64,000 bases of DNA, taken from assembly GCA_046293555.1 (NCBI GenBank), contig JBKBOT010000004.1, positions 5,485 to 69,484 on the forward strand, read 5' to 3'. Positions within the stretch are counted from its first letter, which is position 1; the number at the start of each line of letters is the position of its first letter. A program made the translations under genes and the position numbers. Under the pieces are notes generated by a model. It saw nothing but the letters and a program-made list of their open reading frames with translations, ran no database searches and was not told where the DNA came from. Source of the stretch: Pyrobaculum sp. Its GTDB lineage: Archaea; Thermoproteota; Thermoprotei; Thermoproteales; Thermoproteaceae. Positions 20,263 through 50,132 of the stretch are shown piece by piece.

Positions 20263-20279
20263 GGTTTACTATGTTAACC
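20263..20279. promoter_or_regulatory. Candidate denitrification operator (GGTTTAC-TAT-GTTAACC)
   Basis: Imperfect palindrome 7 nt before TTAAG (nirS TATA-like box); also 7 nt before CTAAAAA on the - strand for the cytochrome c gene. Confidence 0.65.
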
Positions 20280-20312
20280 ACAAAGATTAAGTCACTGTGT
20301 GTAGAGAGCCAC

Positions 20313-21932
20313 ATGGGCGAGAAAGAGACCAGGAGAGATTTTCTAAAGGCGGCTGCTGCTGCGGGCATAGGCTTCGCAGTGGGGTCATGGGCGCTGGCGT
20401 TATCTAGACAAAAGGTGGTGGTAGAGACTACTGCAGAAAAGGAGACGTTAGTAAGGCCAGAGGTGAGAGTAAAGCCAGAGGTCCACATACAGCAAGCTGC
20501 GCCAACTGCGGCGGCGCCGCCCCATCCGGCTTTTGAAAAACGGGGGCTGGAGTTCCTAAACCCAGAGAATATACAAAAGACGTTAAGAGTTGTCGTGCCG
20601 GAGGACCAGCTTCCCGGCAAGCCAGTTGGCTATAACATAAACGACATAGACTGGATAGCTCTCCTCATCGAGAGTAGATACCACGAGCCGGGGGCCGAGA
20701 TGGTGGGGTCCTATACCTTCCTCGACATGAAGGAGTTTAAGATCTTAAAGCGGGTGAAAAACGCCGGCGATCGCGTCCATGTGGTGCGGTTTGGCAGAGA
20801 GGAGTGGCCTGAACACAAGAGGCGGTTTGCGGTGGGGATGTCTAGAGACTGCTGGCTCTCTAAGATAGACCTATACTCAATGCAGGTGGTGAGACAGATA
20901 AAAATTGGCGTAGATTGTAGAAGCGCCATCTTTGACAAAGATGGGAAGTACGTAATAGCGGGCTCTAAAGACCCGGGCCACGCCGTGATACTAGATGCAG
21001 ACACCTTTAAGGTCTTAAAGGTAATACCGTTTCTAGGCGTCAGTAAGTACTTCCCCACGCCAATGATGGGGAGACAGGGGGCAATACTGGCCTCAGACTT
21101 GGGCTACTGGCTTGTCAACGTGAAAGACGCAGAGATGGTGTTAGTAATTGACTACAGGCAGCCTGACTTCCCCATCGTCCACGTCTTTACTAGTTATGAT
21201 ACAAACAAGAAGGGCAGCTCGGTGAAAGTAAGAATTGGCGACAAGGAGTATGAGACAACAGGTATTGGCAAAAGCCCCCACGAGCTTAATAAGTTAGATA
21301 AGGAGGGTAGATATGTCGCAGTTACAGGACAGGAGGGCAATACCATATCTATAGTAGACATGAAGACTTTCGAAATTGTTAATACAGTATACTGTGGCAA
21401 AAAGCCGCATCCAGGCCCCGGCACGCTGGTACCTGGAAAATACTTCCTTACAAACGCCATAGCGGAGGGTTTAATCACAGTGATAAACCTACAGACCATG
21501 GATGTAGAGAAATACATCAAGTATCCAAAAGAGTTCCCGCCAGAGACAGGCGGTGGCCTGTACTCCACCCCGCCCCTGCCTGACGGCAGAGTTCCCCACA
21601 ACTTGGCGTGGTTTGACACCAGCTTCAATATAAACAAGGGCGTATTTGCAGTAGACATTACGTTAATGGACGTGGCCACTAGGCCCCCGGAGCCCGCCGT
21701 CTTTGCCCCCAACAAGCCCGGCAAGTGGGCTATGCATCCCGGACATACCCCAGACGGGAGATATGTGGTGTCTGCCCTCGAGAGGACCGACATGGTGTAC
21801 AAAGTGGATGCCGAAAGCGGCAAGATTGTCTCCACCATCGAGCTAAAGAAGGTGGAGCCAGTCCAGCTGGTGGAAGAGCCGAGCCCCACCGGGATATTCC
21901 CGTTGTGGCGTATAAAGGCGCCGTGGTTTTAG
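20313..21932 (+). CDS. nirS: cd1-type nitrite reductase, d1 beta-propeller domain only
   Basis: Tat signal RRDFLK; RVHVVRF, PHE, PHPGPG, MHPG repeats of the d1 propeller; no CxxCH. Confidence 0.75.
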   Translation: MGEKETRRDFLKAAAAAGIGFAVGSWALALSRQKVVVETTAEKETLVRPEVRVKPEVHIQQAAPTAAAPPHPAFEKRGLEFLNPENIQKTLRVVVPEDQLPGKPVGYNINDIDWIALLIESRYHEPGAEMVGSYTFLDMKEFKILKRVKNAGDRVHVVRFGREEWPEHKRRFAVGMSRDCWLSKIDLYSMQVVRQIKIGVDCRSAIFDKDGKYVIAGSKDPGHAVILDADTFKVLKVIPFLGVSKYFPTPMMGRQGAILASDLGYWLVNVKDAEMVLVIDYRQPDFPIVHVFTSYDTNKKGSSVKVRIGDKEYETTGIGKSPHELNKLDKEGRYVAVTGQEGNTISIVDMKTFEIVNTVYCGKKPHPGPGTLVPGKYFLTNAIAEGLITVINLQTMDVEKYIKYPKEFPPETGGGLYSTPPLPDGRVPHNLAWFDTSFNINKGVFAVDITLMDVATRPPEPAVFAPNKPGKWAMHPGHTPDGRYVVSALERTDMVYKVDAESGKIVSTIELKKVEPVQLVEEPSPTGIFPLWRIKAPWF

Positions 21933-22489
21933 GCAGGGTATACATCGTCGGCGCCGGCCCCGGCGACCCGGAGTTATTAACGGTCAAGGCCCTTTTTCTC
22001 CTTCTAACAGCAGACGTGGTCTTCGCCGCCTCCCTCGTCCCCAGCTCAATTCTCAGCCTAGCTGACGGCAAAGTGGTGAAGTGCGGCCGCCTTACCTCTA
22101 GCCGACATGTAGGGCTGACAGCAAAAGTAATAGAGGAGGCCAAGTCTGGAAAGACGGTAGTGGTGTTAAAAAACGGGGATCCAGTCATATTCGGCCGGGG
22201 GGTGGCCATGTGTAGAGAGATAGAGAAGGCCGGCGTGCCTTGTGAAATTGTGCCCGGAGTCTCCTCCTTCTCTGCAGCTGCGGCGAAGTACAAAATACCC
22301 ATAACTGAGGGGGGCAGGCCTCTCCTCCTGACTACAGCCAGAAGTGGGGGGGAGCCAGACGTGGTGGTATTTATGCCTGAACAGAGGGCTGAGGGGCTTG
22401 TGGTGGAGGACCTATATGGAGAGGGCGAGAGGGCGTATTTTGGGGTGCCACAAAAGACGCCGGCGCTAGTCTTTAAACTAAGGCAGTAA
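21923..22489 (+). CDS. Uroporphyrinogen-III C-methyltransferase (NirE/CobA family)
   Basis: VYIVGAGPGDPELLT, LKNGDPVIFGRG, IVPGVSS; GTG at 21923 overlaps the nirS end. Confidence 0.88.
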   Translation: MVLGRVYIVGAGPGDPELLTVKALFLLLTADVVFAASLVPSSILSLADGKVVKCGRLTSSRHVGLTAKVIEEAKSGKTVVVLKNGDPVIFGRGVAMCREIEKAGVPCEIVPGVSSFSAAAAKYKIPITEGGRPLLLTTARSGGEPDVVVFMPEQRAEGLVVEDLYGEGERAYFGVPQKTPALVFKLRQ

Positions 22490-22928
22490 TTTTTTTCAAC
22501 ACATTTTTAAAGGTCTTATATACAGCTGTCTTAGATATCTGATATCTCTCCGCCAATGTGGCCAAGTTGCCTCCATTAGCCATAGACTGCAACACCTCCC
22601 TCTGTCGAGGCGTGAGGAAAAGCTCCCGGCTGTCTAAAGTCTTTATTTCAACCACCTGGTCTTTACTCAAGATCTTTCTCACAGCTGCATTATCGCTCAC
22701 AATGACTTTAATCCTTTGGTTTTCAAGTATAGGCCCGCGTAACACATAGCCGGCGGCAAGTAGGCGGTAGAAAACACACTCCTCACATCGCGCCGCCATG
22801 ACCTCCACGCCGCGGTGTGTATGTAGGAGGTAGAAAATCTTGTCGCCACGTATTTTAAAACCAACGATGGCCTTCACGTCGGGGGGAAGTTTGTCACAAG
22901 GACGTAAAATAACTTTTAAAAATTTCAT
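22473..22928 (-). CDS. Transcription regulator, C-terminal HTH (Bat/HTH_10-like), paralog 1
   Basis: LTPRQREVL...LAERYQISKTAVYK; N-terminal C..CxxC. Confidence 0.8.
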   Translation of the reverse strand: MKFLKVILRPCDKLPPDVKAIVGFKIRGDKIFYLLHTHRGVEVMAARCEECVFYRLLAAGYVLRGPILENQRIKVIVSDNAAVRKILSKDQVVEIKTLDSRELFLTPRQREVLQSMANGGNLATLAERYQISKTAVYKTFKNVLKKITALV

Positions 22929-22931
22929 AGC

Positions 22932-22986
22932 AATAGGTTATTATCTTTATTTAAATTTTATCTTAAATATATTTTTATAACCTATT
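22932..22986. promoter_or_regulatory. Perfect 10-bp inverted repeat AATAGGTTAT-N35-ATAACCTATT
   Basis: Arms at 22932-22941 and 22977-22986 flank the AT-rich promoter of the HTH gene. Confidence 0.5.
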
Positions 22987-23097
22987 ACATCTTTATATAT
23001 GTGAATAGATTTTTATGTAAAATTGTGTATATTTATAAATTCCTGTTTTTAACGATTATTTACACAAAAATTTTTATAGCTCTCTTTATTTTAAAAC

Positions 23098-23940
23098 GTG
23101 TTGCCCTATTTAGTATTGCTAAAGCCTAGAGTAATTTGGCTTTTAATATTGGCGTCAGTGGCTGGGTATATATATGCAACTCCACAAATAGATCCCATAC
23201 TCTTGTTGTCTTTATTACTTGTAGCTTTTCTTTCTACAGGAGGATCTGCGGCCTTTAATCATTACTGGGAGAGAGATATTGACAGCGCCATGACTCGCAC
23301 CGCCAAAAGGCCTCTACCCATGGGCCTTGTGGCGCCGAAAAACGCCTTGACCTACTCCCTAATGCTTTCAGCTGTTGGCGTGTTATGCGGCTTTCTATTA
23401 TTGGGGCCTCTCCCGACATTTTTCGTGGCATTGGGGTGGGTCTTTTATTCTGTAGTATATACGATATTGCTAAAAAGGAGAAGTTGGCTAAATGTGTTGG
23501 GCGGCGGCTTTGCTGGAAACGCCACTTTTCTAGGTGGTTATGCCTTGGGTAAGGGGTATATAGACCTTACAGCCCTGTTGCTCTCTTTTGCGATATATCT
23601 CTGGATTCCTTCACACATATGGGCTCTTGCGTATAGATATAGACATGACTACAGAGCCGCCGGGGTGCCCATGTTGCCCACAGTGGTGAGTGAAGGCAAT
23701 GCAATAAAGATAATCTCGACGTTAAATATCTTAAGCGCTTTTTACATCCTGTGGCTATATCTCACTCTCGCGGGGGCAGACCACCTCTTTTTGTTAGTGG
23801 CGGCAGGCGCCGCGGCGTCTATATATACAAGCATAAAAGCCCTCATTGAGAAGAGCGACGAGGCGATGTGGAAGATGTATAAAGCCTCTAGCCCCATCCT
23901 CATGTTGTTTCTCCTCGCCCTTATTTTCGCCAAGCTTTAA
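23098..23940 (+). CDS. ctaB: Protoheme IX farnesyltransferase
   Basis: [51 protein letters not shown]. Confidence 0.93.
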
Positions 23941-24905
23941 GGAAGGGGGATAGGCTTCTGTCTGGCCAGCCTCCAGGCCACATATAGCACCGTGGCGATA
24001 GTCAAAACGCCGGCTGCTGTGATCTGGCCTAATAGCCGTAGGGCAGTTGCGATAGTGGCCAGCGCCAACAGCTCCAGCCCGTAGGTGGGGGCCCCCCTAT
24101 ATAAGACAGAGGGGAGGAAATAGGGCACGCACAACACGGACATCACCAAGGCGAAGGCCATGTACATAAAGTGGTGGTGTACCCCCGCGAGGGCTATGGC
24201 CCATCTAAACGCAAGGGCCCCCACGCCGTAGGGGTCTCTCACCTTGGGCGGAGCCACGGCGGTTAACACAAGTGACGGCAGTAAGAAGGCCCAGAGGTGC
24301 CCCAGCCTAAACGCCAGATAGGCGGCGACATATGTGGAGGCGAGGGCGAGAGAGCTGGCGAGAGAAAACCTCCGCCTAGCCTTAGAGCTGTCGATACGAT
24401 ATAGCAACGTGTAGACTGACGCCAGAGGGTAGGAGGCTATGGCGTCGAGGTGGCTTCCGGCCGTCGGCAGAAATAATAGCCCCGGCACTGTGACGAGATT
24501 GGGGACATATGTGGGCTTCCCCCCAAGGCCCTTTATATATAAGATGGCGTAAGTTAGAGAAAAGGGGAGGTAGGCTATGTACCCAACCCAGTAGGAGACC
24601 ACGGCGGCGGAGAAAAACGCGGCGGCTAGCAGCCATGTGGCTGGCCTTTTGGGGACTGCGTTTATAAATCCCGGCAGCTGTATATACATGACGGAGAAAT
24701 AGAAGGCCAGAAGCCCCACTGCCATGAGGTGGGCGTGAAACAAATGGCGACCAGCCACGGCGTCATATATGGCCAGGAGGAAAGATGCGGCGGAGACATA
24801 TAACGCGATTTGTGCCGACTTGATTACAGCCACAGTGGCTTTAAAAAAGGCGTGGGGGTTAGACCTCCCGATTTCTAGCCACACGCCGCTTCTCACATGT
24901 CTCAT
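23937..24905 (-). CDS. Polytopic membrane protein, NnrS-like
   Basis: FHAHLMAVG...QLPGF resembles the NnrS N-terminal His motif; HHHFM later; about 10 TMs. Confidence 0.45.
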
Positions 24906-24915
24906 GTACCTGCAG

Positions 24916-25365
24916 TCACGTCAATAACGTCACGACTTTTCTTAACGCCTTTTTGAAGTGTTTGTAGACCGCCGATTTGGAGACGCCGTATTTATCTGCA
25001 ACGTCAGACAGACTGTAGCCGCCGGCCACCTGTCTAAGTACTTCTCTCTGGCGGGGAGTTAGAGTGAGGTCGCTAAGCCGCAGGGCCTCTACTATACGGC
25101 CTCTATATGTCTCCACCACCTGTCTAACTGCCCTACTGTCTCTCACCACAATCACAACTTTTCTTCCCTCAAAAATGGGGCCTTTTGCCACATATCCCGT
25201 GGTGAGTAACCTATAGAGGGGACAATTCTCACATTTCGCGACGACGATCTTAACTCCAGCCGTGGTTTGCACTATGTGGTACATCTTGCCATGTCTAATC
25301 TTGACGCCAATTATGTCAAACGGAACGGCGTCGCAGTGATTTAATGTGAGCTTCAAAAATCTCAT
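24916..25365 (-). CDS. Transcription regulator, C-terminal HTH (Bat/HTH_10-like), paralog 2
   Basis: LTPRQREVL...VADKYGVSKSAVYK; C..CxxC aligned with paralog 1. Confidence 0.8.
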   Translation of the reverse strand: MRFLKLTLNHCDAVPFDIIGVKIRHGKMYHIVQTTAGVKIVVAKCENCPLYRLLTTGYVAKGPIFEGRKVVIVVRDSRAVRQVVETYRGRIVEALRLSDLTLTPRQREVLRQVAGGYSLSDVADKYGVSKSAVYKHFKKALRKVVTLLT

Positions 25366-25391
25366 GATATTACTAATCTCTCTCTTTTTAA

Positions 25392-25814
25392 CTAGTGTAT
25401 ATGGATTTCGAGGGTGGTGGGCGGCGCCTCGAATTGTATCTTGGCGCCGTCGTCTAGACGTATGGCTACTCTTATGGTTCCCTCTACGGCGCCATATATC
25501 ATGAGGTGGTATGTGAGGTGTCTAAAAGACGCCGTGCTGAAGGGAGCCACACAGACCTTATCTACAGGCAGCATGGCCACCACAGTGCCGTTAACTACAG
25601 TTTTGTGTAACTCCGCCGTGGCTGTATGTGGTTTTTCCAGCTCGGCGCCTATGATACATCTGGTGAAAGGCGTTGGGTTTACAAAGGTGAAGTATACCAT
25701 CCCCACGTCTGGCGCCGTCATGACGTAACTGGCGTCTTTCACATAGGGCCTGGCTAGGCCTATATAGGCGAGGGTAATTACGGCGACTGTCAGCACTATG
25801 GCGAGAAGCCGCAT
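25392..25814 (-). CDS. PCu(A)C copper chaperone
   Basis: ELHKT..(10)..M..(~21)..HLM motif; N-terminal signal. Confidence 0.85.
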   Translation of the reverse strand: MRLLAIVLTVAVITLAYIGLARPYVKDASYVMTAPDVGMVYFTFVNPTPFTRCIIGAELEKPHTATAELHKTVVNGTVVAMLPVDKVCVAPFSTASFRHLTYHLMIYGAVEGTIRVAIRLDDGAKIQFEAPPTTLEIHIH

Positions 25815-25817
25815 GTC

Positions 25818-26168
25818 TTAATATGGCCTTAAAAATATTGCATATGCCATAGCCACCAACGCCACGAGGCCAATAAAGTGGTCTATAGGTATGTCTGTAT
25901 GGGGGATGTGCCAGACGTAGCCCGTGTACATAGATATGGAGAGAGCCAGCTCTCTTGCCAGCAGTAGGAGAAACGCCACGAGGAGCCACCTAAATCTGGG
26001 GGTTCTCACCCTCACATATCCAGAAATAGCCACGTAGAGCAAAACTGCCGCCACCACCACTGTGGCTGTATGTAACATGGCGTGTCCTGGCGACAGCCCC
26101 TCGTGTTTATGTCCCAAAGAGAGGAGGAGGACGGCTATGGGTATTAGGAAAAACAACAGGCTTCTCAT
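25818..26168 (-). CDS. Small His-containing membrane protein
   Basis: 3-4 TMs, GHAMLH and DHF motifs. Confidence 0.55.
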   Translation of the reverse strand: MRSLLFFLIPIAVLLLSLGHKHEGLSPGHAMLHTATVVVAAVLLYVAISGYVRVRTPRFRWLLVAFLLLLARELALSISMYTGYVWHIPHTDIPIDHFIGLVALVAMAYAIFLRPY

Positions 26169-26908
26169 AGGTCTATTTTTTTAGAGTTGTCGTATATGGC
26201 TAAAGCCAACGCGGCGAGCCACGCCGCGTATATGCCTGAAAACACCACAAAGATCCACTCTGGTCCCATATGTATGACGTATTCCCCCAGAGGCCCTAGA
26301 GTTAAGAGGTGGCGGTCTACAAGCGCCGTGGCTGTAAGCGCCACCAGCTTTATGGGGTTTGCCAGCTGTATGGCCAACAGGGCTTCACTCCCCAGCGGCA
26401 GTATGAGGTTTATAAAAGCCACAACTATGTCGTATATTATGGCCAGCCCCGTCCACGCCACCACCGAGTAGAGAAAAGCCGACTCCCGGCTTTTAGAGAT
26501 AAGGCCTATATATGTGCCAAGTAGCGACGCCACCGCCGAGACGGACAAGGTGAAAAAAACGGCGGGGGTCCCCCGCAGTAGGAAATACGGCGTTATGGCC
26601 ACAAGGGTGTACGCCAGCGCCAGCGCCAGGTTTGCCACAGCTCTACTCCAGAAATAACCCGCCCTCCCCCAGCTGGAGAGATAGGCCTCCACAAGGCCCT
26701 CTCTATCTCCCACCGTGGAGGCAGTGGAGGCCATCATGGCTATAAAGGAGGCCACCACCGTGAGGAAGTTTATAGAGGTTACCACAGCCGCAAAGCCGCC
26801 GCCTAGAGATGCCAAAGCCACAGAGACAGCCCACCCTAAGGCCAACATGGCGAGATATGGCGGAGTTAAGGCGTCGCGTTTAAGTGTAAATATAAGCAGT
26901 TTAGCCAT
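26165..26908 (-). CDS. nosY: NosY-like ABC permease (set 1)
   Basis: 6 TMs, DREG..E..LS, LANP; follows the nosF-like ATPase. Confidence 0.7.
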   Translation of the reverse strand: MAKLLIFTLKRDALTPPYLAMLALGWAVSVALASLGGGFAAVVTSINFLTVVASFIAMMASTASTVGDREGLVEAYLSSWGRAGYFWSRAVANLALALAYTLVAITPYFLLRGTPAVFFTLSVSAVASLLGTYIGLISKSRESAFLYSVVAWTGLAIIYDIVVAFINLILPLGSEALLAIQLANPIKLVALTATALVDRHLLTLGPLGEYVIHMGPEWIFVVFSGIYAAWLAALALAIYDNSKKIDL

Positions 26909-27557
26909 AGCCCACCACATATCGCATCTCTCCCCACTTGACACATATCTCGTCCCCACAGGCCTCCAGATACGCCGCCTTGGCTTTCTCCCAGCTGGCC
27001 ACAGAGGTGACTCTCCCCTCCTGTATATATATCAAGGTGGGTTTAAGTACCAGAAATGGCGCCGGGTCGTGTGTAGCCAGTATGAAGGGCCTCCCGGCTA
27101 GAGACCTAACTAGCTCTACCCTAAACCTAGTCTCTAGGTAGGAAAGCGGCTCGTCCAGAAGAGGTATTTTATCTAGAGAGGCCGCCACCGTGAGTAAAAC
27201 CCGCGCCGCCATGCCGGAAGAAAGCTCCGCCCCCCTCTTGGCGAGAAAGTCCTCTACTCCAAACCTGGGCCTAATGTCCCTCTGGAAGACCTCAGAGAGG
27301 TGTTGTAAATACTCCCCCACAGTTACTGTAGGCGGCAGGCGGGGGGCAGGCGGCAGGTAGTAAAACAGGCCGGGGCCTGCCGGCATGCCGTCAATCTCCA
27401 CACGGCTCTTACAGCTATATACGCCGGAGAGGCAGCGGAGGACTGTGGACTTGCCGCTGCCGTTTGGCCCTAACAACAGGGCGGGGCCGCTCCACCTGGC
27501 GTCAAATCTCAGCGAGAAGCCTCTAAACCTCTTCTCTACCGCCGCGTAAATATCCAT
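26901..27557 (-). CDS. nosF: NosF-like ABC ATPase (set 1)
   Basis: GPNGSGKS, LSSGM, LLDEP. Confidence 0.7.
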   Translation of the reverse strand: MDIYAAVEKRFRGFSLRFDARWSGPALLLGPNGSGKSTVLRCLSGVYSCKSRVEIDGMPAGPGLFYYLPPAPRLPPTVTVGEYLQHLSEVFQRDIRPRFGVEDFLAKRGAELSSGMAARVLLTVAASLDKIPLLDEPLSYLETRFRVELVRSLAGRPFILATHDPAPFLVLKPTLIYIQEGRVTSVASWEKAKAAYLEACGDEICVKWGEMRYVVGYG

Positions 27558-28696
27558 AACGCCGCCGGCAGTAAGGCAAAGACGGCCAGCCAGCTGGGTT
27601 GACGTACGTCCGGCTGGGGGGTTGGGTCGGCCACGACGGGCCTCCCGGCTAGGGAGTCAATTAGGGCTTTGGCTGGAGATGCGGCCAGAAAGGCGAGGTC
27701 TCCCTCTGTGGCTGTCATGAGGTCTGAAAAGGCGCTGGAGTATACATAGGGCCTGTCTGACGGGTGGCCGCCCCAGAGGTTGTGTATAAACGCCGCAGTG
27801 GCCGCCGCCTCCCCCACGCCGCGGTGTAATACAGCCACCACGTTGTCTCTAATGGTGTTGTTGGCAAAAAGGACGCCGGTGCCGTTTCTCCCCCATAGAG
27901 TTACCCCAAAGTAGTTCTCCACAATGTCGCAATTTTTAACTACAACACGTGTGCCGCCCCAGTAGAGGACAAAAACGCCGTGGATATTCCCACGGGAGGT
28001 ACAGCCGGCCACCTCTCCCTCTACCTCTGCCAGAAGTAGCCCGTAGCCCTCCGCCCAATTCCTGTTGTCTACCAACGTGGCGTTTTGTAACGTCGCCGCC
28101 GTGGTGTACATCAAGGCGGCTCCCACGTAGTTCTGGCGGGCGTAGAGACCCTCTATAGCCGCCCCGTGGCTAAACATCAGGTGGACGCCATATCTACAGT
28201 CCCAAGTCTCCACATTGCTGATTTTAACCCCCCTGGAGTACTCGACGTATATACAGTCGTGAAAATGTCTAAAAGAGGCCCACGCCGCCTCCACGTTGCT
28301 GGAGTTATATAGATACAGCCCCACGCCCCTCTTGTATATAGGGAGTCCCTCAAGCCCGACGGCGTTAATACCCCTAATGGCGACATTTGTGGAGTTAAAG
28401 ACCAGCACCCCCGAGCTACACCAGAGCTCTAGCCTCTCGACGGTTATATTCCTGCCCACAATTAACATACAGCCGGCTGTGGGCTTTAGCCTATATGCGG
28501 TCATAACTGCCGGGAGCTCTACGGCCACCTCCCCGCCTTTAACCACGGCGTTTTTTAAAACCACGTCGCTGGCGTTTATCACAAGCCTAGAGGCTGTGAT
28601 GTTTTCATAAACGCCTGGCTTGTCTATTATAACTACAGCCGCTAACGCCTTAACAGCTATTATACCAGCCAGGAGGAGAAGACCAAGCAGGGCCAT
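27536..28696 (-). CDS. nosD: NosD-like beta-helix protein (set 1)
   Basis: RGVGLYLYNS, DCIYVEYS, RYGVHLMFS, HNLWG. Confidence 0.8.
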   Translation of the reverse strand: MALLGLLLLAGIIAVKALAAVVIIDKPGVYENITASRLVINASDVVLKNAVVKGGEVAVELPAVMTAYRLKPTAGCMLIVGRNITVERLELWCSSGVLVFNSTNVAIRGINAVGLEGLPIYKRGVGLYLYNSSNVEAAWASFRHFHDCIYVEYSRGVKISNVETWDCRYGVHLMFSHGAAIEGLYARQNYVGAALMYTTAATLQNATLVDNRNWAEGYGLLLAEVEGEVAGCTSRGNIHGVFVLYWGGTRVVVKNCDIVENYFGVTLWGRNGTGVLFANNTIRDNVVAVLHRGVGEAAATAAFIHNLWGGHPSDRPYVYSSAFSDLMTATEGDLAFLAASPAKALIDSLAGRPVVADPTPQPDVRQPSWLAVFALLPAALWIFTRR

Positions 28697-29252
28697 AGTG
28701 GAAGTTATTTAAGACACATTTATAACTAACCACCTTCCTCACCTCTCCGCTAGGCTTCGGGGGGCTGTAGACATCGCCACCAATGGCTTTAACCCGCCAG
28801 GGGCTTGACGCCTCGCCTCTCTTGTACCTCTCCAGGTTTTGGGGTGCCACAGCCAATATCCCGGTGCCCATAGCGGTGAACTCCGTAGTGACCAAAAGGC
28901 TGGCCTCCCGCGCCTCTATCCATCTGCCCTCCACTCTATCTATCACACAGACTTGTAACACCTCCCCGCCCGAGTTCTCTACTTCTCTATGCCATGTGGC
29001 TAGACAGCCCACGTCGTCAAAAAAATACCACCGCTCTACTCCCCTCAACCTGACTTTCATCGCCGCGGCTGAGGGGGGGTAATCTACCACCATCTTGCAG
29101 ACTGGACACTCCTCCCGGCCGAAGACAAGCGGCGGCTCCTCCCCACAGTAAAGACCCCCCTCCCCGCCCCTCAGGCGGGACAATACGCCAAATAACGCCG
29201 CCGTCCCCACGAGGCCTAGGAGGAGGGCGAAAAAAGTGCGGCGGGTTGGCAT
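28650..29252 (-). CDS. nosL: NosL-like Cu chaperone with Tat-like signal
   Basis: RRTFF signal, CPVCKM, FFDDVGCL, TAMGTG. Confidence 0.8.
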   Translation of the reverse strand: MPTRRTFFALLLGLVGTAALFGVLSRLRGGEGGLYCGEEPPLVFGREECPVCKMVVDYPPSAAAMKVRLRGVERWYFFDDVGCLATWHREVENSGGEVLQVCVIDRVEGRWIEAREASLLVTTEFTAMGTGILAVAPQNLERYKRGEASSPWRVKAIGGDVYSPPKPSGEVRKVVSYKCVLNNFHYGPAWSSPPGWYNSC

Positions 29253-40343: not shown

Positions 40344-40463
40344 ATGGAGGGCAGAGAAGAAGCAAAAGGCGCTTTGGCTACTATGTTGATATATGCTGCA
40401 ATATTTGCCGCACTTTGGTTTTTGGTTTATACAGTCACGTTAGGTAGAGGCATAGTGGGGTAG
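40344..40463 (+). CDS. cbaD: ba3 oxidase subunit IIa (CbaD-like, 39 aa)
   Basis: MEGREEAKGALATMLIYAAIFAALWFLVYTVTLGRGIVG; KGA..W..VY..RG pattern of subunit IIa; 2 nt before cbaB. Confidence 0.8.
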   Translation: MEGREEAKGALATMLIYAAIFAALWFLVYTVTLGRGIVG

Positions 40464-40465
40464 CT

Positions 40466-40942: not shown

Positions 40943-40989
40943 GTGTAAAGAATAGAAAAGTTTATAAATTGAACTTCTTTTTTTATTAC

Positions 40990-42651: not shown

Positions 42652-42673
42652 AATACCCCTCCCTTTTTTTCCC

Positions 42674-43291
42674 GTGAGGTTTTTCCCCATCCTCATCCTG
42701 GCCGTAGCAATTCCCTTCATAGTGGCTATAGTTATGCAGCTTGGGGGCACCACCGCCGAGGAGCACTCAGGTCTTTTTGAGAGAGTTGTCCCCATTTGCT
42801 ACCCCCCGGGCCGGGAGCCAGAGGCGTATGACTTCCAGCTGGTGGACCAGTTCGGCAGGTCGGTGAGGCTCTCCCAGCTGTGGGGTGGGGCGGTGTTGAT
42901 TACTTTTACCTATAGCTACTGTCCCGACGTCTGTCCGTTAATGCACCTAGTGCTCAACAGGTCGCTCCCCCACATAAGGCCGTATATAGCCCATGTGTTA
43001 GACGTCTCTCTCGACCCCGAGAGAGACACTGTGGAGAGGTTATATCACTACGCTATGGGCAATCGTTACAACTGGACCTTTCTTACGGGCGACTTGAGGG
43101 CTCTGGAGGCCGTCTGGAGGGCATATGGCGTGACCCGCTCTGTGACATATGTGGGCGGCCAGCCGTATATAGTACACGACGTGGTTTGGGCCGTGGTAAA
43201 AGACGGCAGGCTGTTAGGCATGGTGAGGGGGCTCCCGTCGCCCGAAACGCTTTCGCAATATCTGGCGAGAATTGTGGAGAGGAGATGTTAG
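42674..43291 (+). CDS. SCO1/SenC copper chaperone
   Basis: FTYSYCPDVCP, distal His (VHD). Confidence 0.9.
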   Translation: MRFFPILILAVAIPFIVAIVMQLGGTTAEEHSGLFERVVPICYPPGREPEAYDFQLVDQFGRSVRLSQLWGGAVLITFTYSYCPDVCPLMHLVLNRSLPHIRPYIAHVLDVSLDPERDTVERLYHYAMGNRYNWTFLTGDLRALEAVWRAYGVTRSVTYVGGQPYIVHDVVWAVVKDGRLLGMVRGLPSPETLSQYLARIVERRC

Positions 43292-43650
43292 ACCTAATAC
43301 TTAGGGCCTTGTTGCAATGTCCAGGCCCCTACTTCCGCCAGCTTTCAAAAGAGCTGTCCATACCGGTGGGCACTCTTGACTACTACCTCACAAAGCTGAC
43401 TAGAGAAAGGCTGGCATATAGGCTGGGGTCTCGGCCCCGGTATTACCACATCAAGACAGCCCTCGAGGAGGCCCTGGCGATATATATACTACGGGAGGGT
43501 CCGAGGGCACTGGCGGAATTTCCAGAGGCTAAATGTGGCAAGTCTCTATGCCCAACAGTCAGAAACCTCATGGCTGCTGCGTTAGATAAATATCCATGTC
43601 TAAGGAGAGACGTTGTGGAAAACTACATAACCCTCATGATGTTGATATAG
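43285..43650 (+). CDS. Winged-helix regulator
   Basis: PGPYFRQLSKELSIPVGTLDYYL; ATG 43285. Confidence 0.7.
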   Translation: MLDLILRALLQCPGPYFRQLSKELSIPVGTLDYYLTKLTRERLAYRLGSRPRYYHIKTALEEALAIYILREGPRALAEFPEAKCGKSLCPTVRNLMAAALDKYPCLRRDVVENYITLMMLI

Positions 43651-43750
43651 CCGCGTTTTTACCGCAGCGATACTAGAACAGCTTTTGGAGATTTTTGAAG
43701 GTTGTTGTTCCAAAACTTTTATAAAGTCTTGTGTGACAAGTGGAGGGGGA

Positions 43751-43767
43751 GGTTAATGTGATTAACC
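43751..43767. promoter_or_regulatory. Candidate denitrification operator (GGTTAAT-GTG-ATTAACC)
   Basis: Perfect 7-bp palindrome 7 nt before TTATAT (43775); nosZ ATG at 43802. Confidence 0.7.
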
Positions 43768-43801
43768 TAAAGGCTTATATGTGTAGTGGTAGGCATGGAT
43801 C

Positions 43802-45928
43802 ATGAGCCGGGTTAGAGTTTATGGATCTGCGGCGTCGGGTGGGGGCAAGCCCACGAGGGTCAAGATCTCGAGGCGTGAGGTGATTGCAGGTGTCGGCGGG
43901 TTGGCGGTAGGCCTTGTGGGTGGCTATGCGTTAAGCACTCTCTTGCAGAAAGGCGCCGTGGCGCCGGCGCCGCCTGGCGTGTGGGAAGAGGTACAGAAGA
44001 TAGCAACTGCGCGGAAGCTCTCTCCTGACGACGTCACAGCTGCCGTCAAGACCTATCTGCCGGGCACTATGCATGACGAGTTTTATCTATTCTCGAGCGG
44101 CGGCCACTCCGGCCAGGTGGGGGTTATGGGGATACCGTCGATGAAGCTATATCGCATTATTGCCGTATTTACTCCAGAGCCTTGGCAGGGGTGGGGATAT
44201 CACGACAAGAAGACTATGGAGACTTTATTTAGCGAAAGAGCCACTGCCGGCAGGCCGCTGGCGTGGGGTGACACACACCACCCGGAGTTTGATAGACAAA
44301 ATGCAGAGTATGTAGGCAGGTGGCTTTTCATAGGCGACAAAGTCCACGGCAGGGCTGCCGCCATTTCTCTATTGGACTTTGAGCCTAAAGACATTGTGAA
44401 GATACCAAACGTCCAGACTATCCACGGCGGCGCCTTCACTACGCCGAACACCGAATATGTGCTCTACGCCACGCAGTACCCAGCGCCATGGGAGCCCGGG
44501 AGGGGGTATAAGCCCGGCGTGACTAAAGTGCCGTGGTTACAGGTTGTAAAAGAGGAGAAATACTTCTTTGAATATATGAGGGGGGCTCTCACCTTCCTTG
44601 CCTTTGATAGAGGCACCGGGCGGTTTGACCTCACGAGGAGCTTCCAGATCGAGGTTCCGCCCTACGTCCAGGACTTGGCGACAATTAGCTGGGGTCCCGG
44701 CGACGGCTTGGCGTTTGTAAATTCTTTCGGCACTGAGGGCATGTTCGGCGAGGTGCCTTACGAGGCCAAGTTGTCTAAAAACGACTTTGACCTCCTCCAC
44801 ATCGTGCAGTGGAAGAAGGCGGAGGAGCTTTGTCTAAAGCAGGGACGTTGTAAGGAGATAAACGGCATTAAGGTGTTATCTCTAGAAGACGCGGTGAGGG
44901 AGGGAGTGTTGTTTTTCGCTAGAGAGCCCAAGAGCCCACACGGCGTGGACACCTCGCCGGGAGGTAATTTCATATCGGTCGGCGGGAAGCTTGCCCCCTA
45001 TGCCACAATCTACGGCGCTGAGAGAGTGAAGAGGGCAATTGCAGATGGGAAGTTTGAGGGGAGGGATAGATATGGCGTGCCTATACTAGATTTCGGCTCT
45101 ATAGTGGCCGGGCAGGTGGAGGCGTGTCTAGGGCCTCTCCACACGGAGTTCGACGGGAGGGGCAATGCGTATATAAGCTGTTTTGTGGAAAACGTGGTTA
45201 CTAAATTCTCTCTCGGCCCTCCAGAGTATAGAGGCGATAAGCCGTTTTCTGTATTAGATAAGGTGGCTATTCACTACAATGTTGGCCATATCTGTGTGCC
45301 TGAGTCCAACTCGCCGAATCCCGCCGGCAAGTATCTAGTGGCTATGAACAAGTGGTCAATTGACCGCTTCATGTCCGCAGGCCCGTTACTGCCGCAAAAC
45401 TTCCAGCTGATTGACATATCTGGCGAGAAGATGAAATTGTTGCTAGATGTCCCCATTGGCTGGGGCGAGCCTCATTACGCCAAGGCGATTAGGTCTGAGA
45501 AGCTCAAGCCTCCAGCTGTATATCCAGTTGGCGCCAATCCGCATGTGATGAAAGGTGGCGAGTTCCAGATAGACCCCAACGCCGTGACTGAGGTGGGGAA
45601 GGAGAGGGTTGAGCGCCGCCAGCTGCCAGACGGGCGTTGGGTCACAGAGGTGTGGGGGACTGTCATCAGATCTACGATAAGGCCCATCATAATTGTGGCA
45701 AAGAGGGGAGACTTGGTGAGACTACATTTAACCAACGTGGAGAAGAGTATAGACGCCACACATGGCCTCGCCATTGCGGAATACAATGTGGCCGCATCTC
45801 TAGAGCCTGGGGAATATGCGTTAATAGAGTTTGTAGCTGACATACCTGGCGTGTTTGCGTTTTACTGCTACGAGTTCTGCTCGCCGCTTCACCTAGAAAT
45901 GGTCGGATGGCTGGTGGTGGAGGAATAA
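43802..45928 (+). CDS. nosZ: Nitrous oxide reductase
   Basis: Tat SRREV, FSSGGHSGQ, GDTHH, IHG, SPHG, GPLHT, GEPH, CuA CYEFCSPLHLEM. Confidence 0.96.
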   Translation: MSRVRVYGSAASGGGKPTRVKISRREVIAGVGGLAVGLVGGYALSTLLQKGAVAPAPPGVWEEVQKIATARKLSPDDVTAAVKTYLPGTMHDEFYLFSSGGHSGQVGVMGIPSMKLYRIIAVFTPEPWQGWGYHDKKTMETLFSERATAGRPLAWGDTHHPEFDRQNAEYVGRWLFIGDKVHGRAAAISLLDFEPKDIVKIPNVQTIHGGAFTTPNTEYVLYATQYPAPWEPGRGYKPGVTKVPWLQVVKEEKYFFEYMRGALTFLAFDRGTGRFDLTRSFQIEVPPYVQDLATISWGPGDGLAFVNSFGTEGMFGEVPYEAKLSKNDFDLLHIVQWKKAEELCLKQGRCKEINGIKVLSLEDAVREGVLFFAREPKSPHGVDTSPGGNFISVGGKLAPYATIYGAERVKRAIADGKFEGRDRYGVPILDFGSIVAGQVEACLGPLHTEFDGRGNAYISCFVENVVTKFSLGPPEYRGDKPFSVLDKVAIHYNVGHICVPESNSPNPAGKYLVAMNKWSIDRFMSAGPLLPQNFQLIDISGEKMKLLLDVPIGWGEPHYAKAIRSEKLKPPAVYPVGANPHVMKGGEFQIDPNAVTEVGKERVERRQLPDGRWVTEVWGTVIRSTIRPIIIVAKRGDLVRLHLTNVEKSIDATHGLAIAEYNVAASLEPGEYALIEFVADIPGVFAFYCYEFCSPLHLEMVGWLVVEE

Positions 45929-46371
45929 GTCGGCGGGTTGTAGTCATGTCTCTTGTCGCCATTGCCTCCGGGGCGGCAGTTTTTTTCCTCCCTCCAAGGA
46001 GGGAGAATTCCCCCGAAATTAGGCTGGGGGTAGATAAATGCGCCGTCTGTCAAATGGTTATTGTAGACAAGAGGTTTGCCGCCGTCTATCGCCATGAGGG
46101 GAGGTGGGAGAAATTTGACGACGTTATATGTCTCCTCCGTTATCTCAAAGAAATTGGGCGGCTTGACGATATTAAAAACGCCTATGTATATGACTACCTC
46201 TCTGGAAGGTTGGTAAAGGCGTCGGAGGCCTATTTTGTCATAACAAAGAAGATACCTACCCCCATGGGCTCTGGAATTGTGGCGTTTATAGATAGAGAAC
46301 AAGCCGCGGCATATTCGGAAGACGGGAAGATCTACACTATAGAAGAGCTAGCGGAGAAAGTCTTGCCATGA
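45907..46371 (+). CDS. nosL: NosL
   Basis: CAVCQM, FDDVICL, TPMGSG. Confidence 0.88.
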   Translation: MAGGGGISRRVVVMSLVAIASGAAVFFLPPRRENSPEIRLGVDKCAVCQMVIVDKRFAAVYRHEGRWEKFDDVICLLRYLKEIGRLDDIKNAYVYDYLSGRLVKASEAYFVITKKIPTPMGSGIVAFIDREQAAAYSEDGKIYTIEELAEKVLP

Positions 46372-46922
46372 GGCTGGCGGTAAGGCCCATAGCCCTTGTA
46401 GGCCTCGTGTTGATTTTAATTAGCTACGCCTTCCCCTTCTGGTCTACTTACTTGTCTTCGCCTATATTTGGCTACACCCGGCAGGTATATATCAAGGTGA
46501 TGTTGGCTGGATATGTGGATTACACCCCTCCTGACGCCCTCCTGCAGTTAAATATAGCCCATCACTACGTCGGCTTGCCGCCTCTAGAGCCCGAAAAAAT
46601 GATTGAGCTGAAGCTCATGCCCCTTCTGCCGGCTGGGCTTTTTGTGGTCTACCTTCTGTATCTATTTGGCAAACTAAGGCCCAGGTGGCTTCTCTTGGTT
46701 ACATACCTGGCGCTGATAGGCGGCGTGGCTTACTTCCAGTGGTGGCTATATAACCTCGGCCACAGCATAACGCCGGGGGCGCCTGTGAAGATCGAGCCGT
46801 TTACGCCAATGGTTGTGGGCGCGTACCAAATCGCCAATTTCACGGCATTAAACCTCTTAGACGTGGGCTTCTGGCTTCTGGCCATAGCCCCGGTGTTTGC
46901 ATATCTGGGACGTAAAAAGTGA
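46368..46922 (+). CDS. NosB-like 4-TM membrane protein
   Basis: PFW...LNIAHHYVGL pattern of the accessory membrane protein of clade II nos clusters. Confidence 0.7.
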   Translation: MRLAVRPIALVGLVLILISYAFPFWSTYLSSPIFGYTRQVYIKVMLAGYVDYTPPDALLQLNIAHHYVGLPPLEPEKMIELKLMPLLPAGLFVVYLLYLFGKLRPRWLLLVTYLALIGGVAYFQWWLYNLGHSITPGAPVKIEPFTPMVVGAYQIANFTALNLLDVGFWLLAIAPVFAYLGRKK

Positions 46923-48220
46923 TTATTTTTTTACTTTTTACAGTCTTTATCTCAGCTGCCGTCATGGTGTCGCCGCCTGGGGGCGGCGCCTATCAACTAC
47001 CCACGTTTAATTTATCTCAAGTCCCCCCCGGCTCTAAGGTGTATCTCAGCGGCGTTTTTGCCGGGAGTTTTGTTGTAGATAGGCCGGTGGAGATTGTGGG
47101 GCGTGGCGCCGTGTTGTACGGAAATGGCACAGTGTTGAGAATTGTGGCCAGTGACGTTAGAGTAGCTAACTTAACTATCGCCCGCTGTGGGAGAACCGGG
47201 CTGGATTCGGGAATTTGGGTGGAGAATGCCAGAAATGTGACTATAGTCGGAATATCTATAGAGGAGTGTCTCTACCCAGTTATGGTGTATAACTCCACCG
47301 GGGTTAAAATCGTTGGCTCAAATATAGCAAGCTTTAGGGAAGTACCTAGGGTGACCTACGGCGGGGGGCCGGTGGCTATGCACGAACTGACGCAATACTT
47401 CAGGGGGCATGGGGTATATGTCTGGTTTTCACGTGGCGTCGTAGTGGAGGGTAGCCGTTTTGCCCACGTGTTAGATGGGGTCTACTGCGACCACGCCTAT
47501 GGGTTGGAGGTAGTGCAAAATGTCTTCACGTCGGGTAGTAGATATGCAGTCCACCTGATGTATTGCGAGGGGGTTAACATAGTTGGCAACTCTGTGCGGG
47601 ATTATGTGGTGGGCTTTATCCCCATGTATAGCAGCTCTGTGGTTATTAACAAAAATGTTGTAGTCGACATAAGGAGAGTCGGCGGCGCGGCTGTGGTGAT
47701 TTTTGAAAGCGACGACGTGTATATATGCAACAATATAATTACCAGAAATTACCTAGGCGTTGAGCACTTCCGTTCCCCCCTCAGGCCGGGGGGTCGGGTG
47801 GTCATTGTAAATAACACTTTTCTCTATAATAACATAGCCATAAAGCTAGACTCCTACTCTACCCCAGCCATATATGGAAATTTATTTATAGAAAACATCC
47901 GGGATGTGTTGCCGTTGTTTAACAATGGCGCGTTACTTTACAACGAGAGTTTAAAAATAGGTAACTTCTGGGGGGTTTCACGCGGCGTGTATGTAGCACG
48001 GCAGAGGGTATTTGACAAACTACTGGCCGACAATCCCCACCTCGAGCTCTTTGTATTAACGCCAGCTTTTACACTTTTGGAACAACTATTTGGCGTGACG
48101 TATCCCCGGGGGGGAGAGCTAGTGGATAAATACCCCATTTCCCGTCAAGTAGACATATCGGCGTTGTATATAGTTGTCGCCATTCTGGCGGTGGTGGCAT
48201 ATGTCTGGAGTAGAGATTAA
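46919..48220 (+). CDS. nosD: NosD (set 2)
   Basis: RGHGVYVWFS, DGVY, RYAVHLMY, GNFWG. Confidence 0.9.
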   Translation: MIIFLLFTVFISAAVMVSPPGGGAYQLPTFNLSQVPPGSKVYLSGVFAGSFVVDRPVEIVGRGAVLYGNGTVLRIVASDVRVANLTIARCGRTGLDSGIWVENARNVTIVGISIEECLYPVMVYNSTGVKIVGSNIASFREVPRVTYGGGPVAMHELTQYFRGHGVYVWFSRGVVVEGSRFAHVLDGVYCDHAYGLEVVQNVFTSGSRYAVHLMYCEGVNIVGNSVRDYVVGFIPMYSSSVVINKNVVVDIRRVGGAAVVIFESDDVYICNNIITRNYLGVEHFRSPLRPGGRVVIVNNTFLYNNIAIKLDSYSTPAIYGNLFIENIRDVLPLFNNGALLYNESLKIGNFWGVSRGVYVARQRVFDKLLADNPHLELFVLTPAFTLLEQLFGVTYPRGGELVDKYPISRQVDISALYIVVAILAVVAYVWSRD

Positions 48221-48818
48221 AGTCGCAGACCTGACTTATGCCGTAGGCGGCCATGAGATCTTGAAGAATGTAAACATGGAGATAGACAGGGGGGCATTTG
48301 TGGTGGTGACAGGGCCAAACGGCTCTGGCAAGACCACCTTCCTTAGGTGTGTTGTAGGCGTGTTGAAATGTGAGGGAATCGTGGAGGTTATGGGGAGAGA
48401 CCCGCGGAGAGATGTAGAGGTGAGAAGGGGGGTGGGGTATGTTCCACAACTGCTCCCCTTCCCCCCACTCGCCGTGAGGGAGGTGGTGTGGCTACACTAC
48501 AAGATCTACGGGATTTCAAACGGCGAGGTGTTAAAAGAGTGGGGGCTGGCGGCTCTGCTCGACAGAAAGGTGGCTAGGCTTTCTGGCGGCGAGAGGCAAA
48601 GGCTGGCGTGGGCCCTCGCCCTATCTCACAAGCCGAGGGTGTTAATTCTCGACGAGCCTTTTAACAACCTAGATGCAGAGGGGAAAAGGTTGGCTTTAGA
48701 GAAGTTAAGAGAGTTGAGAGAAAAGGTGACAGTAGTTATGGCCATACATGAGGCGTATGAGGTGGAGAAGTTGGCAGACGCCGTGGTGAGATTTGAGGGG
48801 GGGATGGCGAGGATATGA
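48201..48818 (+). CDS. nosF: NosF ABC ATPase (set 2)
   Basis: GPNGSGKTT, LSGGERQRL, LDEP. Confidence 0.85.
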   Translation: MSGVEIKVADLTYAVGGHEILKNVNMEIDRGAFVVVTGPNGSGKTTFLRCVVGVLKCEGIVEVMGRDPRRDVEVRRGVGYVPQLLPFPPLAVREVVWLHYKIYGISNGEVLKEWGLAALLDRKVARLSGGERQRLAWALALSHKPRVLILDEPFNNLDAEGKRLALEKLRELREKVTVVMAIHEAYEVEKLADAVVRFEGGMARI

Positions 48819-49597
48819 TAGTCTGTCTCTTCACGGTGAGGCAGTGGCTTCTCCACAGGTGGGTTTTTTCCTACGCCGCCTCTCTTGTTTTAATACTGCT
48901 TTTCATATTCTACACGGCCTATTTTGGCCTCGCCTGGATACAACCAGAGTTTTACGGCAGGGTGGCCGTGGCTGTAGTCAACGCCGCTCTTTTTCTAGTC
49001 TCTCTCTCCGCTCTGTTGATTCCGCTGTTTGTATATCAAGACGATAGAGAGACTGGGCTTTACGAGTGGTTTATCTCCAGGCCTGTGAGGCGATTTCATC
49101 TATGCCGCTGGCTGGGCGTGGCGGCTTCCCTCTCGGCGGCCACCATTGCCTCCTTCCTCGTCGCCATGTCTCTTAACTACCTGATGTTCCGCCTTTTTGT
49201 CTCGCAGATGTTAATAATCGCCGCGGTTTTTATGGCCTTAATCTTCTCGCTGTCTGCAGTTAGCTATCTCATCTCCATGGCTCTTCCCGACAAGGCCTCT
49301 GCCTTAGGCGCCGGGTTTTTCCTCTGGCTTTACCTCAATATTATCCACACCATTGTGGCTATGGTTTTTGCCCTGGGGTCCCCTCCAGATGTCGCCTTTG
49401 TGATATATGTCCTCAGCCCCGTGGAGTCCGCCAGATTTCTCAGCTTCTATGTGGTAGACCCCACTCTCTCTTTTTTAAACCCAGTGACGGCGATAGACCT
49501 CACGCTCTCGCTACAAGGCCTCCTCTTTTACCTACCTGTAGCCGTATTGGCAACACCTATTGTGATCGCCCTGGCGGTGTTTCGAACTCTTCCTTAA
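48815..49597 (+). CDS. nosY: NosY permease (set 2)
   Basis: 6 TMs, DRETG.YE..ISRP. Confidence 0.8.
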   Translation: MIVCLFTVRQWLLHRWVFSYAASLVLILLFIFYTAYFGLAWIQPEFYGRVAVAVVNAALFLVSLSALLIPLFVYQDDRETGLYEWFISRPVRRFHLCRWLGVAASLSAATIASFLVAMSLNYLMFRLFVSQMLIIAAVFMALIFSLSAVSYLISMALPDKASALGAGFFLWLYLNIIHTIVAMVFALGSPPDVAFVIYVLSPVESARFLSFYVVDPTLSFLNPVTAIDLTLSLQGLLFYLPVAVLATPIVIALAVFRTLP

Positions 49598-50090
49598 ATA
49601 TAGCCCACAGCGCCCTGGCTAGGTGTCTATATGGACTCTTGTGTTTTTCTAGACATTCCACAAATTTCTTAAACCACGGCGCAATAAAACGTCGGTAGAA
49701 TTCTCTCCTAAGTTCCTCCCTGCCGCCTGTGGTGGCGCCGAGAAATTCCAACATGGCTGGGAGGTAGTCTGGTAGCTCCCGCCGTATGTCCATAGTGAAG
49801 CCCAGGGCCTTGTAGTAAGTCAATATTTGGTACATATAGAGGCCTCTCTCCCTGCTGTCTTCCCCCAGGGCGTAGTAGCCGGCATATGGGGGACATCTGG
49901 GCGTGAGTTCAAACATCTCCACCCTGTGGCTTTCCAGATCTACACCCTCTGCCTCCTCGAGGAAGGCCTTAAGTTCCTCAAGGCCTAGCTCTTCTGCCAG
50001 CGTGGAGATCTGTTCTCTAGCTTGTAGAAATGCCGTGGGGCTGTCCACAGCCCTGGCGGCTATTATGTACAAAACGCCTACCAAATCCAC
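49557..50090 (-). CDS. narJ: Nitrate reductase chaperone NarJ
   Basis: Y.EMFE, GEDSRERG..M, ELPDYLP.MLEF. Confidence 0.88.
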   Translation of the reverse strand: MDLVGVLYIIAARAVDSPTAFLQAREQISTLAEELGLEELKAFLEEAEGVDLESHRVEMFELTPRCPPYAGYYALGEDSRERGLYMYQILTYYKALGFTMDIRRELPDYLPAMLEFLGATTGGREELRREFYRRFIAPWFKKFVECLEKHKSPYRHLARALWAIFKEEFETPPGRSQ

Positions 50091-50115
50091 AGATGTAGAA
50101 AAGAGCTATAGATAA

Positions 50116-50132
50116 AGTTAATGTGGTTAACC
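50116..50132. promoter_or_regulatory. Candidate denitrification operator (AGTTAAT-GTG-GTTAACC)
   Basis: 15/17 identical to the nosZ site; 7 nt before TTTAAC (50140); nor ATG at 50171. Confidence 0.7.

Follow-up and report, generated by a model that had tools for sequence, protein, structure and literature searches.

A shared 17-bp palindrome as the probable operator of a nir-nos-nor regulon in Pyrobaculum

Introduction

The promoters of nirK, nor and nosZ in Haloferax mediterranei share a semi-palindrome, CGAAYATDKTYG, whereas the nar promoter behaves differently (PMC10062603). Mutagenesis in H. mediterranei supports a regulatory role of this motif, and the regulator proposed for the haloarchaeal denitrification motif is NarO in H. 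volcanii (PMC10062603). Here, we analyse a stretch of 64,000 nucleotides (nt) from a draft genome of Pyrobaculum sp., called the window throughout, in which a 17-bp palindrome stands before nirS, nosZ and nor. The Haloferax system is its closest archaeal parallel; in both cases one semi-palindromic element is found at nir, nor and nos, with nar standing apart. Yet CGAAYATDKTYG and the palindrome are unrelated in sequence, and the hosts belong to different phyla, Halobacteriota and Thermoproteota. The placement differs as well, since the Haloferax motif lies 66-79 nt before the ATG, while the palindrome described here lies 7 nt before the TATA box and about 43 nt before the ATG.

In bacteria, the dimeric factors FNR/DNR/NnrR bind the box TTGAT-N4-ATCAA centred near -41.5 and co-activate nir, nor and nos in response to nitric oxide (NO) or low oxygen. 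Like these boxes, our palindrome is found at nir, nor and nos and has its centre some 40-43 nt before the start. However, the motif is different; an earlier note on this DNA had set it apart from TTGAT-N4-ATCAA, and indeed all sites are of the GGTTAAC-N3-GTTAACC type. Moreover, the machinery here is that of the TATA-binding protein (TBP) and transcription factor B (TFB), so that no contact with sigma or with the C-terminal domain of the alpha subunit is involved, and a Pfam scan of ten local proteins detected no CRP/FNR domain.

A further likeness is with the NarL/GerE/LuxR regulators, among which NarL binds 7-2-7 heptamer sites and TraR binds the tra box. It lies in the type of helix-turn-helix (HTH) carried by the protein family that we consider below as the candidate binding factor (family A), and in a site formed by an inverted repeat of two heptamers around a short spacer, 7-3-7 in our case. 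In contrast to these regulators, family A has no receiver or autoinducer domain, its N-terminal Cys/His fold has no solved relative and its host is archaeal. Among archaeal factors, Ptr2, TFB-RF1 and TrmBL1/SurR bind, at the promoters that they activate, just upstream of the TFB recognition element (BRE) and the TATA box. The palindrome likewise adjoins the BRE on its upstream side and keeps a fixed distance, as would suit recruitment of TBP/TFB, but the protein families and motifs are others, and a single site here appears to serve two mirror-image promoters.

To our knowledge, the way in which denitrification is switched on in the Crenarchaeota (Thermoproteota) is essentially unknown, and in the literature found, no cis-element or regulator of denitrification has been demonstrated for this group. 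Cozen et al. 2009 are said to have predicted an NO-responsive transcriptional regulator in Pyrobaculum aerophilum from expression patterns. Our full-text literature search, which was limited, returned no published description of the element, and an earlier description in Cozen et al. 2009 is possible.

Results

The palindrome and its promoter geometry

The assembly is a 1.75-Mb draft of 145 contigs, 96% complete, and the window corresponds to C4:5485-69484. The earlier note had described three related 17-mers, each ending exactly 7 nt before a TATA-like box that starts 26-31 nt before the ATG. All three are present in the sequence with this spacing, their boxes starting 27 (nosZ), 31 (nor) and 26 nt (nirS) before the start codon. 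The palindrome has the family consensus GGTTAAC-N3-GTTAACC, 17 bp long and in a 7-3-7 arrangement. The candidate operators, with their scores in the genome-wide matrix scan described below, and the TATA-like boxes are:

43751-43767, no strand: candidate nosZ operator GGTTAATGTGATTAACC (GGTTAAT-GTG-ATTAACC), a perfect palindrome; 24.0 bits, genome rank 1
50116-50132, no strand: candidate nor operator AGTTAATGTGGTTAACC (AGTTAAT-GTG-GTTAACC), in the divergent narJ/nor region; 22.1 bits, genome rank 2
20263-20279, no strand: candidate nirS operator GGTTTACTATGTTAACC (GGTTTAC-TAT-GTTAACC), midpoint of the divergent cytochrome c/nirS promoter; 18.3 bits, genome rank 3
43775-43780, plus strand: nosZ TATA-like box TTATAT
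50140-50145, plus strand: nor TATA-like box TTTAAC
20287-20291, plus strand: nirS TATA-like box TTAAG, before the ATG at 20313
20249-20255, minus strand: mirror TATA-like box CTAAAAA on the cytochrome c side, separated from the operator by 7 nt, with the ATG of cytochrome c (20228) 27 nt further on

A promoter profile was drawn from 437 genes of the genome, all of them starting with ATG and preceded by a spacer of at least 70 nt. Relative to the ATG, this profile has its maximum of AT content at -27 to -21 and, at -32 to -30, an A-rich element. A TATA peak at about -27 to -21 together with an A-rich BRE is the pattern of leaderless crenarchaeal promoters, and by this profile the mRNAs of the genome look leaderless. 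The TATA-like boxes of nosZ and nirS fall at the genomic TATA position, that of nor 4 nt further upstream. The palindrome spans about -51 to -35 (centre about -43) and abuts the BRE; it is thus upstream of and adjacent to BRE/TATA, covering neither the TATA box nor the transcription start site (TSS), which is the placement looked for in an archaeal activator site.

The promoter shared by nirS and the divergent cytochrome c gene is mirror-symmetric, with 7 nt and then a TATA-like box on either side of the palindrome. The first ATG of the mechanically called nirS open reading frame (ORF), at 20271, sits inside the palindrome; the real start is the ATG at 20313, followed by the twin-arginine motif RRDFLK. 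At the nor site, a TATA-like TTATCTATA box directly abuts the palindrome on the side of narJ. In the related genomes G003 and G017, an AT-rich box is found 4-6 nt from the palindrome on that side. The narG gene, which comes after nor on that strand, has a TTTTAAT box of its own and lacks the palindrome, and T-tracts follow the nor stop codon. The earlier note had taken the three reductases to be induced separately from nitrate reductase. The promoter of narG agrees with this, but narJ, divergent from nor, has the nor site in common with it, and the separation from nitrate reductase is therefore incomplete.

Rarity of the motif in the genome

A weight matrix was built from 19 non-redundant sites taken exclusively from orthologous promoters of other genomes. 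When the whole 1.75-Mb assembly was scanned with it, the nosZ, nor and nirS sites were the three best matches, and the fourth-best, at 16.0 bits, lies within a coding region; among positions 15-90 nt before gene starts, no further site above 14 bits was found. Frequent occurrence in intergenic DNA, which the earlier note had named as a result that would speak against its proposal, was therefore not what the ranking gave. Simpler searches agreed with the matrix. If up to 3 mismatches are allowed, the nosZ 17-mer is found in the window at nosZ and nor and nowhere else (0.14 expected; 0/100 shuffles reached the observed count), and the pattern GTTAAY-N3-RTTAAC occurs in the whole assembly at the nosZ and nor promoters only. 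As had been noted earlier, no copy precedes narG, the ba3 and other oxidases or housekeeping genes, and this holds in the matrix and promoter scans of the draft assembly.

A relaxed pattern, TTAAY-N3-RTTAA, gave 18 sites, mostly in AT-rich intergenic DNA, and was dropped as uninformative without the flanking G and C. Avoidance of GTTAAC as a restriction site was also considered as a cause of the rarity and rejected: with 340 hexamers observed against 449 expected, GTTAAC is not strongly avoided in the genome, so that the rarity of the motif is no restriction-site artefact.

Conservation in orthologous promoters

The whole genomes of relatives were searched with the NosZ, Nor and NirS proteins, and the DNA upstream of each hit was read. 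Conservation in such promoters was the test that the earlier note had set in advance, and the element was retained: a site of at least 17 bits stands at the same place in 22 of the 24 orthologous nosZ, nor and nirS promoters of other genomes, and a strict site (neither half with more than 1 mismatch) in 15 of the 24, where 0.07 would be expected. The palindrome is found at nosZ in G003 and G017, with only a half-site in G008; at nor in 12 other genomes, 7 of the same genus and 5 of Thermoproteus; and at nirS in 8 other genomes. Overall, it is kept at the three genes in about 12 Pyrobaculum and Thermoproteus genomes, with divergent flanks. From sequence, the motif is specific to a functionally coherent set of genes and kept in their orthologous promoters, as befits a predicted regulon.

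When the promoters were aligned at the motif, information peaked only at GGTTAA...GGTTAACC, at an AA 4-5 bases downstream (the BRE position) and at TTAT.T, which begins exactly 7 nt past the motif. The 7-nt gap to the TATA box is common to 3/3 window promoters and the majority of the non-redundant orthologous promoters so aligned, and the better-conserved half of the palindrome is the promoter-proximal GTTAACC. In relatives, most promoters of nirS and nor have a mirrored AT-rich box on the upstream side of the motif. In Thermoproteus-type genomes, where a family A gene is divergent from nor, the palindrome has a TATA box on either side, each at a distance of 7 nt.

One nirS ortholog (L036, G002:C1:1531961-1533145) matches only from residue 145 and contains one internal TGA, and is a possible pseudogene; the palindrome upstream of nirS in G002, GGTTAATCAAGTTAACC, is intact at 23.5 bits.

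Family A, the candidate binding factor

Two genes of the window encode family A proteins:

22473-22928, minus strand: candidate regulator, paralog b, with an N-terminal Cys/His domain and a C-terminal LuxR/GerE-type HTH; Pfam GerE 27.7 bits
24916-25365, minus strand: candidate regulator, paralog a, with C11, H30, C45 and C48 and an HTH_10/GerE HTH; Pfam GerE 32.5 and HTH_10 29.7 bits

The Pfam cut-offs are 23.5 bits for GerE and 23.1 bits for HTH_10. The two paralogs, of about 150 amino acids (aa), are 43% identical and have in common C11, a CxxC motif and the C-terminal HTH. An AlphaFold2 (AF2) model of 24916-25365 reached a mean predicted local distance difference test (pLDDT) score of 91.5. 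In Foldseek and HMMER searches, residues of about 100-150 matched only LuxR-type HTH domains (NarL, GerE, TraR, SdiA, RcsB), and together with Pfam these identify a four-helix GerE/LuxR HTH at the C-terminus. For the beta-rich N-terminal domain, neither fold nor sequence comparison gave a match in the PDB. The LuxR-type dimers TraR, SdiA, RcsB and NarL, whose DNA-bound forms the C-terminal domain matched, bind inverted repeats of 16-20 bp, and the 17-bp 7-3-7 palindrome is compatible with binding by a dimer with an HTH of this type.

Regulators of the NarO type are Cys-bearing proteins with a C-terminal HTH of the HTH_10 type. The protein 24916-25365, with an HTH_10 score above the cut-off and conserved C11/H30/C45/C48, may be of similar build; a profile search with family A in 1.84 billion representative proteins gave no NarO-like full-length match. 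This search retrieved only about 30 full-length relatives, in which C11 and C48 never vary and H30 and C45 hardly ever do. A homologous-protein search with 24916-25365 returned that protein alone.

Family A homologs adjoin nor in G012 and nirS in G003 and G017, and are divergent from nor in four Thermoproteus-type genomes. For the distant members, contigs were read for nine distinct proteins of about 25-35% identity. Five of the nine genes are divergent from a qNor (quinol-type nitric oxide reductase) gene whose product is 60-63% identical to that of the window; a sixth lies on a contig of 717 bp that includes no more than the first codons of nor upstream of it; a hemerythrin gene is the divergent neighbour of another; and two, on very short contigs, have no such neighbour. 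The rest of the surroundings consists of housekeeping genes. One of these distant loci carries an intergenic GGTTAAC-CCC-GTTAACC, which scores 26.8 bits with the Pyrobaculum matrix and lies 7 nt before a TATA-like CTATCAAA on the nor side, and another carries GTTAAC-AGT-GTTAAC 7 nt before TTATCA on the hemerythrin side. Palindromes with an N4 spacer were read as well (GGTTAAC-ACAT-GTTAACC, GGGTAAC-CCAG-GTTACCC, GGTTAAC-ACGT-GTAAACC). Among the distant qNor/regulator pairs, the spacer of the palindrome is 4 nt in L043, L045, L047 and L048, and 5 nt in L052 (GGCTAC-N5-GTAGCC).

Several other family A genes were encountered. A scan of genome contigs returned 5 loci, 3 of them in genomes already included; the other two, L037 and L041, hold family A with no palindrome above 13 bits. 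In L041 (Thermoproteus sp. KM4324-17, about 9765-10459), the gene stands beside a 70-aa nor fragment, and in L037 (uncultured Thermoproteales, about 7549-10456) beside a 44-aa cytochrome c fragment and a gene of a second family (family B, see below); both look like decayed denitrification islands. A third, distant paralog of the same genome (27% identity, cluster P0035) lies outside the window at C28:20349-20810 on the minus strand, directly upstream of a KaiC/RecA-like ATPase gene and with no denitrification genes nearby. In G003, a very divergent family A-like gene with extra cysteines (L002 2692-3117, 27% identity) is divergent from nosZ; the corresponding position of the window holds an unrelated ArsR-like gene, 43186-43650.

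Genes of the locus and other candidate proteins

The genes next to the palindromes, and narG, are:

20313-21932, plus strand: nirS, cytochrome d1 nitrite reductase with the twin-arginine translocation (Tat) signal RRDFLK; Pfam Cytochrom_D1 PF02239, 101.5 bits
19635-20228, minus strand: membrane-anchored cytochrome c, divergent from nirS; weak Pfam Cytochrom_C match, CxxCH in the translation
43802-49597, plus strand: nosZ-nosL-orf-nosD-nosF-nosY operon, with nosZ itself at 43802-45928 (Pfam nos_propeller); further Pfam matches NosL, NosD and ABC_tran
50171-52345, plus strand: qNor; Pfam COX1 and NorB_cytochrome_c-like
49557-50090, minus strand: narJ, encoding the nitrate reductase chaperone and divergent from nor; NCBIfam TIGR00684 at 78.7 bits (cut-off 59.35)
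52413-56276, plus strand: narG, molybdopterin oxidoreductase, by Pfam

Since Pfam finds in NirS the d1 domain only, and a separate cytochrome c gene is divergent from it, the nitrite reductase appears to be split into two genes. The narJ gene is detached from narGHI and shares the palindrome region (50091-50170) with nor. Next to the family A gene 22473-22928, a very AT-rich spacer of 170 nt (22929-23097) separates it from a divergent ctaB-like gene and contains a 9-nt inverted repeat, ATAGGTTAT ... ATAACCTAT, with the copies about 40 nt apart.

A further candidate regulator is encoded beside nirS:

19189-19638, minus strand: family B protein, small, whose N-terminus may form an HTH and which carries the invariant motif C-x6-C-x3-C-x2-CP; its gene is the second in the cytochrome c operon

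Family B is kept beside nirS/cytochrome c in several Pyrobaculum genomes. Its AF2 model (pLDDT 75.8) found no fold match in the PDB, and no significant Pfam match to any DNA-binding domain was obtained. The earlier note had listed four local HTH proteins as possible binders, which Pfam assigns to GerE/HTH_10, to a weak ArsR-like HTH_5 or to nothing. Two of them, 22473 and 24916, emerge as the best candidates, whereas for the ArsR-like gene upstream of nosZ (43186/43285) no counterpart was seen in those nosZ loci of relatives that were examined.

Discussion

We consider it likely that the 17-bp element is the operator of one dimeric factor, probably of family A, which would co-regulate nirS/cytochrome c, nosZLDFY, qNor and possibly narJ. 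Judging from gene neighbourhoods, the factor is most likely one of the two family A proteins of the window (22473-22928, 24916-25365). The main argument, both for binding by family A and for an NO-related signal, is the linkage of family A, this type of palindrome and nor across distant lineages. A family A dimer, predicted from this association to bind the element, would recruit or stabilise TFB/TBP on weak, non-consensus TATA boxes and in this way activate transcription, and at the divergent promoters a single site would drive both directions. The conserved Cys11, His30, Cys45 and Cys48 probably form a metal or iron-sulfur (Fe-S) site, and this Cys3-His site may be what senses the signal. 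As family A travels with qNor across Archaea, NO, or else a redox cue closely tied to it, is the most likely signal. Perhaps the implications go further, and family A represents an undescribed class of archaeal NO sensor, combining a Cys3-His metal/Fe-S domain with a LuxR-type HTH, which forms with qNor and a GGTTAAC-type palindrome a portable two-gene module across thermophilic Archaea, and which in Pyrobaculum was extended to nirS/cytochrome c and nosZ as a full nir-nor-nos regulon, one dimer 7 nt from the TATA box firing two mirror-image promoters. We regard this broader picture, taken as a whole, as possible but doubtful. In its logic, the system is a lineage-specific version of familiar regulation and not a new kind of system.

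Several points weigh against co-regulation by a family A activator. We infer activation from a positional rule drawn from other archaeal factors, which is its sole basis. In this genome, neither family A gene is preceded by the palindrome, and of the distant loci, L044 and L046 have none. Distant relatives have N4 or N5 spacers in place of N3, which suggests that the geometry of the factor dimer and the spacing of the site changed together. The family B protein 19189 is encoded inside the operon that the nirS/cytochrome c site would drive, and is for this reason a real alternative binder. Finally, with a draft of 145 contigs and 96% completeness, more sites may be missing from our count.

The direction of control is one matter on which another explanation may be given. 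The palindrome could be the operator of a repressor, which would sit beside the BRE and block TFB/TBP under oxic or nitrogen-oxide-free conditions, to be released by the signal. The site does abut the BRE, with no gap beyond the 7 nt from the TATA box, and occlusion would be favoured where the TATA box directly abuts the palindrome, as on the narJ side here and on the regulator side in L042. In such archaeal cases as TrmBL1/Tgr, SurR, Ptr2 and TFB-RF1, nonetheless, sites upstream of BRE/TATA activate, and repressor sites are placed over or beyond the TATA box or the TSS. Moreover, the TATA boxes are weak and non-consensus (TTAAG, TTTAAC, TTTTCC, TTATCT), as expected for activator-dependent promoters, and we think repression unlikely. 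A similar degree of doubt attaches to the suggestion that the operator is real and is bound by another protein, either family B (19189-19638) or a factor encoded elsewhere, with family A regulating something else or serving as a co-factor. Family B lies directly downstream of the nirS/cytochrome c palindrome, keeps its place beside these genes in several Pyrobaculum genomes, and combines its invariant cysteine motif with a SKSAVYRR-like segment that resembles the recognition region of family A. On the other hand, no family B homolog was found within 1.5 kb on either side of those Thermoproteus-type nor loci that have the palindrome and a divergent family A gene, the protein gave no significant Pfam or fold match to DNA-binding domains, and the distant linkage of family A to qNor and the GGTTAAC palindrome has no family B counterpart.

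The explanation to which we give hardly any credence is that the element is no operator at all, and that a chance match, a recent duplication of promoters within the island or an extended core-promoter element for an alternative TFB accounts for it. The nosZ and nor copies, 6 kb apart, are indeed identical at 15/17 positions and in part of the downstream flank, and the rigid TATA spacing is core-promoter-like. Yet at three genes, and in about 12 genomes from two genera, the element has been retained between diverging flanks, so that the conservation test contradicts this explanation, and strict sites number 15 against 0.07 by chance. In addition, its dyad symmetry and its service to divergent promoters fit a dimeric factor better than an oriented BRE.

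Conclusions

Binding by a family A dimer that activates the denitrification promoters thus stays our preferred explanation, and the prediction comes with a clear target set: nirS and cytochrome c, nosZLDFY, qNor and perhaps narJ, but not narG. The regulon prediction is solid and directly testable with a 17-bp probe, two or three proteins of 150 aa and Pyrobaculum in-vitro transcription. If the Cys/His-HTH family is indeed the sensor, it would be a new type of archaeal NO or redox sensor. The promoters would then offer a clean model of an archaeal activator that contacts TBP/TFB from a rigidly fixed position, bidirectional activation included. It would also help to predict, from genomes, the turnover of nitrous oxide (N2O) and NO in hot-spring communities.

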